A DNA stretch of 64,000 bases from an uncultured Gemmatimonadaceae bacterium. GTDB taxonomy: Bacteria > Gemmatimonadota > Gemmatimonadetes > Gemmatimonadales > Gemmatimonadaceae. Within the stretch, counting starts at the first letter, position 1. Each line of letters starts with the position of its first letter. The notes under the pieces were generated by a model. That model did no database searches and was not told the origin of the DNA. It saw nothing but the letters and a program-made list of their open reading frames with translations. Positions 1,638 through 47,648 of this stretch are shown here, in pieces. The DNA is taken from assembly GCA_963817955.1 (NCBI GenBank), contig CAWFQK010000004.1, positions 608,001 to 672,000 of the forward strand, in the 5' to 3' direction. The position numbers and the translations under genes are program-made.

Positions 1638-1711
1638 TGGGCGAAGAGGGACTCGAACCCCCGACATCCTGCGTGTAAAGCAGGCGCTCTAACCAACTGA
1701 GCTATTCGCCC
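1638..1711 (-). tRNA. tRNA-Val (anticodon TAC), CCA not encoded
   Basis: Reverse complement GGGCGAATAGCTCAGTTGGTTAGAGCGCCTGCTTTACACGCAGGATGTCGGGGGTTCGAGTCCCTCTTCGCCCA: acceptor stem, D arm, anticodon loop TTTACAC, GTTCGA T-loop. Confidence 0.97.
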
Positions 1712-44416: not shown

Positions 44417-44431
44417 CAGTAGTTCCGCGAT

Positions 44432-44476
44432 GAATAAGGAAGGGGGCGGGCCTCGAGGCCGCCCCCTTCCTTATTC
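44432..44476. terminator. Long hairpin (terminator) after the SGNH gene
   Basis: GAATAAGGAAGGGGGCGG ... CCGCCCCCTTCCTTATTC perfect 18-bp arms. Confidence 0.7.
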
Positions 44477-44534
44477 GTGGGTCCGTGAAATGAGTGGGCG
44501 AATTGATGGGTTCCCTGGGGCCACAGAACAGCTT

Positions 44535-44792
44535 TTAACGCAGAGGTCGCAGAGAACTGCAGGAGAACTACAGAGAACTGCAGAGGAACACCGACCAAAT
44601 CTTATCCGGATGTCTTGGATGATGCCTTCGTGACGCTGGGTCCCGAAGCTGAGAGCTGAGATCAGCTGAGAGATGGGATCAAGAGATGGGATCATCCGAC
44701 TGGTGCATCGACTCTCGCGTTCCACCTCTACGCGCTTCTCTCTTGCAGTTCTCTTGCTGTTCTCTTGCTGTTCTCTGTGTCCTCTGCGTTAA
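44535..44792. repeat. Non-coding element with long imperfect terminal inverted repeats (MITE/REP-like)
   Basis: Left TTAACGCAGAGGTCGCAGAGAACTGCA...; right (rc) TTAACGCAGAGGACACAGAGAACAGCA...; internal GAGAAC(T/A)GCA, GCTGAGA and AGAGATGGGATCA repeats. Confidence 0.7.
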
Positions 44793-45020
44793 GAAGTATG
44801 ACGTCCTGTCCTCGAGACGTCGGGAGTGGCGGGGTGACCTCGATGAGCCGAAGACCGAAGATGAAAGTCTCATTGAACACGCCATCGTATCAATTGTGAT
44901 ATCGCTACAATATGGTTTGGTGCAACAACATAGGCATTCTGATGTGACGAACGATATCACATGATTCTCCACACGGGCCCCATGCGTCACAGAAGGTCGG
45001 AATTCACCCAGATCGCGCCA

Positions 45021-46023: not shown

Positions 46024-46788
46024 TCACCCCAGCAGCAAGAACGCGTCGTACAACGCGTGGGTCCAAGCGGTGATGCCAAACCCACGCGTCAGATACAACG
46101 CGCTGAACGCCACGCCGCTCAGCATTCGGAACACGAACGACTGGACCTGAAACTGGTCGCCGAACGGCCCGATGTAATGAAATGCCGAGAAGATGAAGGC
46201 ACCTACGATGGTCGCCAGGACCCCTGCCCCGCGGCGGCCGAATCCCAGCACGATGCGCGCTCCGGCCGCGAGCCCGGTTACGAGCAGCACGCGGAAGAAT
46301 AACTCCTCGTACAGTCCCGCCCCCAGAGAGAGCATGAGGCGAGTCGTCCAACTCGTCTGCTCCACCGGGCCGAGGCTGAGCGCGTGAAGCGACCCGAGGA
46401 GCTTGGCCGTGGTGACACCAACGACGATTCCGAACACGCCGGCCAGAATCGCCGATTCCGCAAGCATGGCGGCAAAGACCCACGGCCGCACGCCAGCGCG
46501 GCTGGTGCGCATGTCGCGCACGACCAAGCCAACGGCGAGAAGGATGATCGCCGCCATGAAGATCGCGGACCCATGGTTGCCGGCGACGGCGATGAAGGCG
46601 CTTCGCAGAATGACGTCGGCGCCATTGCGGACCTCGCCGCGCCCAGGCCGGGCGAGGAGTGACGCCAGCGCCTCGTATCCAACGAGCAGCGGGAGCGCGA
46701 ACAGAATGCTATAGCGATGCGATCGGCTCGCGGCAAAATACGAATCGCGGCGGACGGGCACGGCGGAACGAACGGCTGTGGCGGCCAT
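46024..46788 (-). CDS. CPBP-family intramembrane glutamic endopeptidase
   Basis: YEELFFR, FSAFH, HALYD motifs in a multi-TM protein. Confidence 0.88.
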   Translation of the reverse strand: MAATAVRSAVPVRRDSYFAASRSHRYSILFALPLLVGYEALASLLARPGRGEVRNGADVILRSAFIAVAGNHGSAIFMAAIILLAVGLVVRDMRTSRAGVRPWVFAAMLAESAILAGVFGIVVGVTTAKLLGSLHALSLGPVEQTSWTTRLMLSLGAGLYEELFFRVLLVTGLAAGARIVLGFGRRGAGVLATIVGAFIFSAFHYIGPFGDQFQVQSFVFRMLSGVAFSALYLTRGFGITAWTHALYDAFLLLG

Positions 46789-46862
46789 GGTAGTTCTTAC
46801 GCCAGTGTGCGTCGAAAAGTTCTGGCTGAGGCAGACCGAGGGAGCGCCGCGCCTGAAAATGG

Positions 46863-46891
46863 TTGCGGAACCCGTGCACGAAAGGTAGGGT
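46863..46891 (+). promoter_or_regulatory. Putative sigma70 promoter of a small transcript
   Basis: TTGCGG (46863-68) - 17 nt - TAGGGT (46886-91). Confidence 0.5.
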
Positions 46892-46896
46892 AAGAA

Positions 46897-47104
46897 TGTG
46901 CGTCGCGAAGGTCGCGACCCGAAGTCATGTCGAACCCGAAACCCAGGAGGTGATCCATTGTCTAACGGAACTCGCAACGGCAGGATCGCCGGAAGTCGCT
47001 AAGCCTGCTCGCCTGAGCTTGGCCAACCGGAAGCCTGCTAGTTCCGGTAAAAAGAAACTGAAGAGGGCGGTCGTGGCGATGCCACGGCCGCCCTCACCGT
47101 TTTC
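46897..47104 (+). ncRNA. Putative ~200-nt small RNA / micro-ORF transcript with extended Shine-Dalgarno
   Basis: Promoter, 5' hairpin GTCGCGA-AGG-TCGCGAC, AGGAGGTGATCCA at 46945-46957, 14-codon ORF 46958-47002, hairpin 47026-47048, terminator hairpin 47063-47095. Confidence 0.5.
47063..47104. terminator. GC-rich hairpin between the small transcript and the convergent dut
   Basis: GAGGGCGGTCGTGGC-GAT-GCCACGGCCGCCCTC followed by ACCGTTTT. Confidence 0.7.
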
Positions 47105-47117
47105 CGCCGCCCAGCCG

Positions 47118-47648
47118 TCAGTGTCCTGTACTACCGAACCCGCCGACGCGGGTCGTGGTGACCCCTACCCTACCCGACTCGATTGGCAGCACCTCATAGC
47201 GCGCGAGCACCATCTGCGCGATGCGCTCGCCGTGGACGATCTGGACGGCGTGTCCGGTGGAATTCCCCAGGATGACCATCCACTCGTCGGGATAGTCCGA
47301 ATCGATCGTTCCGGGCGCGTTGGGAATCTGGAGTCCTTTCTTGAAGCTGGTACCGCTGCGCGGCCGGATCTGCGCCTCCACCCCCTCCGGCAGGCGCGCC
47401 TTGAATCCGAGCGGAATCAGCGCGCGAACGCCATGCTCGAGAACGAACCGCGTGGCGTCGCCTTCCAGGACCGGAGCCGCGTCCCAGGTCCGTTGGCCAT
47501 CCGTACATTTCACCGACCGGCCGCTGAGATACGCACACAGATCGTAGCCGGCGGAACCGGGCGTGGCACGTGTGGGCGGCTGGGCATCGTCGTGGAGTAG
47601 CTCCACGATCAGAGCGGGGCTGCCGGCAGTAGGAGCGGATATGGTCAC
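47118..47648 (-). CDS. dut: dUTP diphosphatase
   Basis: SAGYDL, IRPRSG, NAPGTIDSDY, GERIAQ, RVGGFGSTG. Confidence 0.95.
   Translation of the reverse strand: MTISAPTAGSPALIVELLHDDAQPPTRATPGSAGYDLCAYLSGRSVKCTDGQRTWDAAPVLEGDATRFVLEHGVRALIPLGFKARLPEGVEAQIRPRSGTSFKKGLQIPNAPGTIDSDYPDEWMVILGNSTGHAVQIVHGERIAQMVLARYEVLPIESGRVGVTTTRVGGFGSTGH

Follow-up and report, generated by a model that had tools for sequence, protein, structure and literature searches.

Small messenger RNAs (mRNAs) of the rre kind carry, to our knowledge, the longest natural Shine-Dalgarno (SD) sequences known, and they form an unsolved kind of transcript that binds the 30S ribosomal subunit, is barely translated and has no known function. 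In the Bradyrhizobiaceae, rreB is a stand-alone mRNA of 165 nucleotides (nt) with a 17-nt SD complementary to the 3' tail of the 16S ribosomal RNA (rRNA), followed by a short open reading frame (sORF) of 14 amino acids (aa) (Hahn et al. 2017, RNA Biol 14:1353, PMC5711450). The present analysis concerns an element at positions 46863-47104 of a 64,000-nt stretch of DNA from an uncultured Gemmatimonadaceae bacterium (assembly GCA_963817955.1, contig CAWFQK010000004.1, positions 608,001 to 672,000; hereafter the window). The element lies on the + strand and places a 13-nt perfect complement of the 16S tail directly before a UUG start and a 14-codon sORF. With a probability of roughly 0.72, it is read here as an rre-type small mRNA in which docking on the ribosome and translation were selected and the peptide is not the product.

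The published account of rreB provides the closest comparison. Its complement to the 16S tail includes the G of the GUG start codon, and its predicted structure masks the complement except for the first five nt (PMC5711450). The RNA co-sediments with 30S subunits, and this localisation to ribosomes requires the 5' extension of the SD, a 14-nt rreB derivative being found mostly in the soluble fraction (PMC5711450). Translation is described as very weak and near the detection limit, owing to the extended SD and the GUG start, while replacement of GUG by UAG lengthens the half-life from 10 to 37 min, synthetic rreB peptides are unstructured, and 20-fold overproduction has no effect on growth, with ribosomes judged far more abundant than the RNA (PMC5711450). 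The rreR genes of the Rhodobacter/Roseobacter lineage have 18 codons and encode a peptide unrelated to that of rreB, peptides being conserved within the clades of rre genes; in this account the function of rreB is unknown and rre genes are described in Alphaproteobacteria only (PMC5711450). A further alphaproteobacterial transcript that bears on the comparison, the Caulobacter small RNA (sRNA) CC2171, has been Northern-validated in Methylorubrum extorquens (bioRxiv 10.1101/2022.01.24.477521).

Conservation of the element

The 13-mer AGGAGGTGATCCA (46945-46957, +; RNA AGGAGGUGAUCCA) forms an extended SD that is perfectly complementary to the 3' tail of the 16S rRNA of its own genome, both 16S genes of which end in ...GGCTGGATCACCTCCTTAACGG. 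The complementarity measures exactly 13 nt, with a mismatch on the 5' side (C instead of A) and another on the 3' side (U opposite C), and its GGAGG core stands 7 nt from the UUG start codon. A first-pass annotation made from the sequence alone had singled out this motif and proposed searching for it outside rRNA loci. In the 4.53-Mb assembly the search found the 13-mer at three sites, of which two are the 16S 3' ends, and so returned a single non-rRNA site, but one that by itself is no better than chance. Genome counts of the growing 13-mer prefix decayed smoothly from 6 to 13 nt (1662, 369, 108, 36, 12, 6, 3 and 3), 20 of 100 shuffles of the window yielded a 12-mer match with at most one mismatch, and the site on its own is not significant; the 13-mer alone is therefore weak evidence, and it is conservation that decides whether the element is real. 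At the three other AGGAGGTGATC sites in the genome, no start codon was found within 12 bases 3' of the motif.

Conservation was assessed by blastn with a 351-nt region as the query against 61 related genomes. Matches were obtained in 43 of the 61, including 29 of the 30 genomes of the same genus (73-86% identity), and the sole same-genus genome without a match is 74% complete. The matches in relatives start at window 46862, where the promoter-like motif begins, and end near 47104, delimiting an element of ~240 nt. Together with 38 copies from relatives, the window copy makes a set of 39 distinct copies; locus L029 (G033) was left out of all counts, having no exact core by pattern. The promoter-like motif (46863-46891, +), made up of TTGCGG at 46863-46868, a 17-nt spacer and TAGGGT at 46886-46891, recurs as TTGCGG-N17-TAKGGT in 31 of the 39 copies with a spacer of invariably 17 nt, and the eight copies that lack it all come from other families or genera. 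It is this conservation that suggests a promoter. The predicted transcript measures ~205 nt (46898-47104, +), its putative start being placed from the -10 element and its putative end from the terminator described below.

The element is accordingly real and conserved, and is predicted to encode a small folded RNA. What the first-pass annotation had described, namely the promoter-like motif, a 5' hairpin, the 13-mer, the TTG start, the 14-codon frame and two further hairpins, is all present in the window, and its view of a free-standing small transcript unit built around an extreme 16S-tail complement appears well founded on conservation. It had named the lack of conserved homologs as a reason to abandon that view; homologs exist both within the genus, as given above, and across the phylum, where the core pattern was found in 99 of 401 genomes.

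Reading frame, predicted fold and possible masking of the SD

The sORF (46958-47002, +) starts with UUG at 46958, runs for 14 codons (MSNGTRNGRIAGSR) and ends with the stop codon UAA at 47000-47002. Of the 39 copies, 38 start with TTG and one with GTG, 38 have TCT as their second codon and one has TCG, and 31 have an sORF of 14 codons, the others having 11, 19, 20 or 21. In the 26 copies of the window subtype (A-type) the 13-mer is invariant throughout (26/26), and 10 of the 45 sORF columns vary: six at third positions, all synonymous, three at second positions, none at first positions, and the tenth in the stop codon (UAA/UGA). Third positions of the A-type sORF are nevertheless mostly invariant, which points to a constraint on the RNA. 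Each class keeps the first stop of the sORF frame at one codon, where TAA, TAG and TGA replace one another (rreB class, TAA 5, TAG 5 and TGA 3, all at codon 15; rreR class, TAA 2, TAG 10 and TGA 4), and the other two frames vary widely. Judged from sequence comparison, the pattern of variable sites fits a translated frame.

A second subtype occurs in four genomes of the same genus (loci L033-L036, in G002, G024, G016 and G029), and in three of them (L033-L035) the dUTPase gene lies convergent downstream as it does in the window. Its peptide, MSADQTAGEGRRSF or MSADLTAGEGRRSF, has 14 codons and is identical to the window peptide at 4 of 14 positions. What it shares with the window copy is the SD, the UUG start, a length of 14 codons and the masking motif, here GGGUCGCC; the interior is quite different. 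This GGGUCGCC motif has a perfect downstream partner, CGGCGACCCU. Within clades, the peptides are conserved.

An upstream ORF (MSNPKPRR), whose peptide begins with MSN like that of the sORF, as the first-pass annotation had noted, does exist in the window, but its 8-codon ATG form is kept in just 9 of the 39 copies; one copy has an 8-codon TTG form besides, and 15 have no in-frame start. Since this ORF is not conserved, the shared MSN is not evidence of a second peptide, and the candidate was rejected.

Folding of the + strand gave -87.5 kcal/mol (z = -3.62), a value that none of 200 shuffles equalled, and the - strand gave z = -2.35. A hand-completed structure was counted on the alignment of the 26 A-type copies, in which 93.3% of cells were paired, compared with 32.5-48.9% when the partners were slid by 1-3 columns. 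Changes at both partners were counted in 16 pairs (shuffle mean 8.3), a number that none of 500 shuffles reached. Nearly all of the covariation signal comes from the terminator-like stem, a G+C-rich stem of 15 base pairs (bp) at 47063-47095 followed by ACCGTTTT (ACCG, UUUU on the + strand; 47063-47103 in all), where 13 of 14 pairs have changed at both partners and pairing is kept in 95.3% of cells. The T runs that follow this stem in the relatives are longer than that of the window, and these runs, together with G-U pairs in the predicted stems, fit the + strand. Within 47050-47103 an A-rich run precedes the stem and a T run follows it, so that on the - strand the stem is likewise followed by a U-rich run. 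It may act bidirectionally, also ending the convergent dUTPase gene.

The 5' hairpin (46902-46918, +) consists of GUCGCGA, the loop AGG and UCGCGAC (7 bp); its four tested inner pairs are 90.4% paired, with one pair changed on both sides. Hairpin 1 (46998-47023, +) holds the stop codon within its 5' arm, and its formal count is 74.2% of cells paired, a figure in which MAFFT offsets seven copies by one column: these copies, with CUGAGC, carry the 3' arm GCUCGG in place of GCUUAG or GCUUGG, which would keep the pair as G-C. Its pair 134-159 is AU in 18 copies and GU in eight, and its pair 137-156 is CG in 16, UA in two and UG in one. Hairpin 2 (CCGGAA, loop, UUCCGG; 47025-47049, +) is a local hairpin in the RNAalifold consensus, while in the single-sequence minimum free energy fold its 3' arm pairs instead with CGGAACU in the sORF (46966-46973); six of its eight pairs are invariant, and no covariation was seen that favours either the local or the long-range form. 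The invariant CGGAA segments at 46966-46973, 46991-46996 and 47027-47033 could each pair with the single GUUCCGG arm at 47041-47048, a competition that, in the predicted structures, suggests alternative folds.

The fold also involves the ribosome-binding site. Inside the sORF, GGAUCGCC (46983-46990, +) is an internal near-copy of the 16S tail GGAUCACC, differing by one base. In the RNAalifold consensus it pairs with the SD segment GGUGAUCC (46949-46956), and UGUC of the start region pairs with GGCA, leaving AGGA of the SD unpaired, such that the complement is predicted to be mostly buried with few free bases at its 5' end. Of 58 Gemmatimonadota loci (55 distinct sequences), 57 have the partner motif, G[AG]U[CU][GU]CC, inside the sORF, and its variants GAUCGCC, GGUCGCC and GAUUGCC keep the pairing with the SD via wobble. 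Forty-one loci read the motif in one frame and the other 16 in a second. In 24 of 39 relatives the duplex between the SD and downstream sequence scores better than at least 95% of shuffles. Calculated energies are -23.9 kcal/mol for the 13 bp formed with the 16S tail, -9.2 for AGGAGG alone and -14.9 for the masking hairpin, and the 16S duplex is thus predicted to be stronger than the internal mask. The internal mimic of the 16S tail, which could mask the SD and falls in two different frames across subfamilies, is new here.

Both the two-frame reading of the masking motif and the nearly unrelated peptides at one locus point to selection on the RNA rather than on the peptide. From these sequence patterns we conclude that the main targets of selection have been the ribosome-binding site, the fold and the translated length, and not the peptide sequence.

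Distribution and relation to rreB, rreR and CC2171

The core was sought in 401 sampled Gemmatimonadota genomes with the pattern GGAGGTGATCC-W-KTG-TC, the reversed pattern serving as the control. It was found in 99 of the 401, one copy in each, compared with 1 of 401 for the control; without genome G104 the count is 98 of 400. The distribution within the phylum is patchy, with 15 of 93 genomes in family f1, 73 of 166 in f2, 9 of 30 in f6 and 0 of 70 in f7. A scan of a wider collection with one genome per species, using GGAGGTGATCC-W-KTG-TCT, returned at least 120 loci. These comprised an alphaproteobacterial 'MSHC' type of 17-27 codons (at least 61 loci), the rreR type of 18 codons (at least 16), the rreB type of 14 codons located beside a transfer RNA (tRNA) gene as in Hahn et al. 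(2017) (at least 13), Gemmatimonadota types of 11, 14 or 20-21 codons (at least 19) and at least 11 others, including one in-gene match and one Saprospiraceae gene start. The Saprospiraceae match recurred in none of 60 relatives and is an example of a true chance case.

Copies were also found in the order of a Planctomycetaceae-labelled metagenome-assembled genome (the genome behind L058), an order known by this label alone. Counting that genome and 13 of 80 further genomes of the order, 14 of 81 carry one copy each, with no match for the control. The loci L165-L172 (G439-G515) show two core forms, AAAGGAGGTGATCCAGTG, then TCT or TCG, their sORFs have 10 codons (MSDCIKGLHS-like) or 18-19 codons, and most copies have a terminator-like stem and a T run. 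This order is a possible third phylum for rre-type elements. In the literature searched, no report of rre-type genes outside Alphaproteobacteria was found.

The groups differ in what precedes the GGAGG core. The 16S tail reads CCTCCTTTCT in the Planctomycetaceae-labelled and Bradyrhizobium genomes, and the elements there have AAA or GAAA before GGAGG; GAAA is found in 84 of 90 alphaproteobacterial loci. The 16S of the window genome reads CCTCCTTAAC, yet its element has CCCA at this position, and the 19 pattern-derived Gemmatimonadota loci have mostly CCGA and TCGA. That these bases stand before GGAGG despite a 16S reading CCTCCTTAAC indicates that the 5' extension of the duplex is not kept in Gemmatimonadota. 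Other copies from the phylum have 14-15 nt of 16S complementarity, and a search demanding 16-17 nt would miss Gemmatimonadota forms of 13-14 nt.

The element resembles rreB in many respects. Both occur as a single copy per genome, and the promoter-like motif and terminator stem of the element predict a transcription unit of its own, which rreB is known to be. In each, an over-long 16S-tail complement reaches the start codon, which is not AUG and opens a 14-codon sORF beginning M-S, the tiny conserved frame of 14 or 18 codons directly after an extended SD being a hallmark of rre genes. In both, the stop codon lies in the following hairpin, with CGCUAAGC common to the two, and the SD is predicted to be largely masked by an internal 16S-tail-like sequence with few 5' bases free, the masked segment being GGUGAUCC with GGAUCGCC in the element and GAGGUGA with UCACCUC in rreB. 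The start of the element is UUG and lies outside the complement, whereas the GUG of rreB lies inside it, and the neighbours differ (dUTPase and an Rce1-like protease for the element, tRNA-Gly for rreB) as does the phylum. Two further hallmarks of the kind, a perfect complementarity of at least 16 nt to the own 16S and a last complement base that is the first base of GUG, contrast with the 13 nt of the element and with a complement that ends one base before UUG.

The rreR genes share the hallmark ribosome-binding site followed by a tiny sORF. They differ in that their sORF is longer (18 codons) and starts with GUG and their complement measures 16-17 nt. Of 16 rreR loci one was too short to score, and in 14 of the other 15 the SD pairs with downstream sequence no better than in shuffles. 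As rreR and rreB encode unrelated peptides, the class is defined by its ribosome-binding site. The CC2171 family (Rfam RF01867), treated as a non-coding sRNA by Rfam, has a consensus that opens with the same AGGAGGUGAUCCA-NUG-UCU as the element and, like it, a closing helix just past the start and a terminator at the end. At threshold, CC2171 recognised all five 'MSHC' loci tested (82.9-120.2 bits), none of three rreB loci, none of three rreR loci and none of five Gemmatimonadota loci; the alphaproteobacterial 'MSHC' branch is RF01867. A covariance model of rreB (R1) was built from 12 of the 13 rreB-class loci and gave the held-out copy 127.2 bits. Because two hallmarks and both model tests failed, the element is filed as a Gemmatimonadota variant of the rre kind and not as a member of rreB or CC2171. 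The first-pass annotation had presented it as an unannotated novelty, which does not hold for the kind, already published as rre genes and with its 'MSHC' branch in Rfam. The Rfam match that it had named as a ground for withdrawal exists in the form of CC2171, but only below threshold.

The element lies in a 329-nt gap between two minus-strand genes, encoding an Rce1-like/CPBP membrane protease (46024-46788, -; PF02517, 40.8 bits) and a dUTPase (47118-47648, -; PF00692, 76.2 bits), the latter downstream of the element and convergent to it. In most copies at genus level, as in one other genus, a convergent dUTPase gene lies downstream; none was seen within ~500 nt in eight copies from other families or genera, and for this reason the adjacency was taken as inherited synteny and an antisense or cis role on the neighbours was rejected. 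Rfam at gathering thresholds found only a tRNA gene in the window (1638-1711, -; 74.5 bits). Elsewhere in the window, the gap at 44430-44800 upstream of a nitronate monooxygenase gene contains an 18-nt perfect hairpin (44432-44476), inverted arms of 34 nt (44535-44568 and 44759-44792) that are 190 nt apart and 88% complementary, and short tandem direct repeats as well, and looks like a structured or mobile-element-like insert.

Proposed mechanism and competing explanations

As an rre-type small mRNA, the element would work as follows. The conserved promoter-like motif would drive a stand-alone RNA of ~205 nt ending at the covarying terminator stem. In the free RNA, eight SD bases and the start region would be masked by pairing with GGAUCGCC, and AGGA with the upstream bases would be left free as a toehold. 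By analogy with rreB, a 30S subunit would invade via this toehold and form a long SD:anti-SD duplex stronger than the internal hairpin, and the RNA would remain docked on the subunit. Again as in rreB, the over-long duplex and the non-AUG start would make initiation rare, and engagement with the ribosome would govern the turnover of the RNA. Transcription, 30S binding, weak translation and turnover are what we infer for the element, and we think that the act of docking and translating was selected rather than the peptide product. The ribosome-binding small RNA suggested by the first-pass annotation survives in this form, by analogy with its closest studied relative, rreB, which co-sediments with 30S.

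Several observations weigh against this interpretation. Scans of 46500-47400 for consensus (sigma-70) promoters and for terminators returned zero sites each, the window terminator being missed by the simple scan with a T run that is 4 long and 4 nt from the stem. All 12 pairs of the SD-masking helix are invariant within the genus, and the support for the helix is one-sided, consisting of wobble-compatible changes across subfamilies only. The scan patterns fix the start as KTG, and the collection scan also fixes the second codon, so that the uniformity of these positions is partly built in. The complementarity is 13 nt compared with 16-17 in the published rre genes and has no 5' extension; as the 14-nt rreB derivative without this extension is mostly soluble, strong docking on 30S may not hold for the 13-nt form. 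Model R1 reports no match to the window element and gave at best 15.3 bits (E 0.015) on an A-type copy (L013), other alphaproteobacterial classes scoring 12.9-18.7 bits. A permissive scan of the 351-nt region with RF01867 gave 21.3 bits (E 0.013) against a gathering score of 75, the window reached E 0.038 in the genome-wide CC2171 scan, and the alignment covers the SD/start and the terminator only. With both models below threshold, common descent is unproven outside the ribosome-binding site, and the likeness may reflect convergence on a 16S tail that does not vary.

A more far-reaching reading, which we consider improbable, takes the RNA itself and not the peptide as the product: a ribosome-docking RNA common to Alphaproteobacteria, Gemmatimonadota and the Planctomycetaceae-labelled order. 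With its SD masked by an internal copy of the 16S tail, it would be a gauge of free, initiation-competent 30S or of start-codon proofreading, in which docking and rare UUG or GUG initiation would open the fold, set the lifetime or conformation of the RNA and so couple a downstream output to ribosome availability.

Two other explanations, both unlikely and to about the same degree, had been offered by the first-pass annotation. One is a highly translated micropeptide, that is, a gene for an abundant and functional 14-aa peptide in which the perfect SD maximises translation. The ideal 7-nt spacing of GGAGG from the start, the conserved length and stop position of the sORF, the bias of variable sites to synonymous third positions and the conservation of peptides within clades all speak for it. 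Yet the extended SD and the GUG start hold the translation of rreB near the detection limit, and its synthetic peptides are unstructured (PMC5711450), most sORF third positions are invariant, and the internal conserved motif is read in two frames. The peptide is almost wholly different between the subtypes of one genus at one locus (MSNGTRNGRIAGSR and MSADQTAGEGRRSF), and this claim is not upheld.

The other is a non-coding 30S sponge or anti-SD blocker, acting for example in hibernation or stress, to which the sORF would be incidental. The strength of the 13-bp 16S duplex, the position of rreB on 30S subunits (PMC5711450) and the poor conservation of the peptide between subtypes are in its favour. 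Titration of ribosomes is difficult to reconcile with the 20-fold overproduction of rreB that left growth unchanged, with ribosomes far more abundant than the RNA, and an incidental sORF with the effect of the start codon on rreB stability (PMC5711450). The single copy per genome and a stop position that stays fixed while the stop codons interchange argue in the same direction, and the proposal of a sponge or hibernation factor was set aside.

The possibility that the element is a protein-titrating sRNA of the CsrB/RsmZ kind, whose GGA motifs bind a CsrA homologue, appears very improbable. The window copy does contain GGA in AGGAGG, ACGGAAC, CAGGAUC and twice in CCGGAAG, and the genome encodes a CsrA-family protein (PF02599, 75.2 bits compared with a cut-off of 27; an 82-aa open frame, locus L164 at G000:C7:57485-57637, -). 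The part that is invariant across phyla, however, is the 16S complement with the start and not hairpins with GGA in the loop, most GGA motifs fall in stems of the predicted folds, and the alphaproteobacterial branch includes Caulobacter, whose control genome gave no CsrA-family match.

A chance SD-like match or rRNA-operon remnant with no function of its own, for which the smooth prefix decay, a single 13-mer per genome being not improbable, and the near-matches in window shuffles might speak, is already refuted by the conservation of the element, promoter motif and covarying terminator included, throughout nearly the whole genus, by its frequency in the phylum compared with the control, by the 16S match that stops after exactly 13 nt on both sides and by the Saprospiraceae match as the contrasting case; no 16S or spacer similarity was found beyond the tail motif, and Rfam finds no rRNA in the window. 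Two further likenesses, between the peptide and small ribosomal proteins and between the RNA and the signal recognition particle RNA or 6S RNA, were dropped, as neither has Rfam support and the peptide is too short for family tools.

The rre-type reading extends these mRNAs in several ways. The same ribosome-binding-site design is present in single copy in a quarter of the sampled Gemmatimonadota and in the Planctomycetaceae-labelled order, and is no longer confined to one proteobacterial class; this spread beyond Alphaproteobacteria argues for a general ribosome-linked role. An annotation gap surrounds these genes, as neither Rfam 15 nor the scans used here call them. The Gemmatimonadota form amounts to a natural deletion series in which the 3' extension of the duplex to the start codon is kept and the 5' extension is lost, the latter being the part needed for ribosome localisation in Bradyrhizobium. 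The masking motif read in two frames, together with the unrelated peptides encoded at the same locus, makes a case, open to testing, for selection on the RNA and its translation rather than on the peptide.

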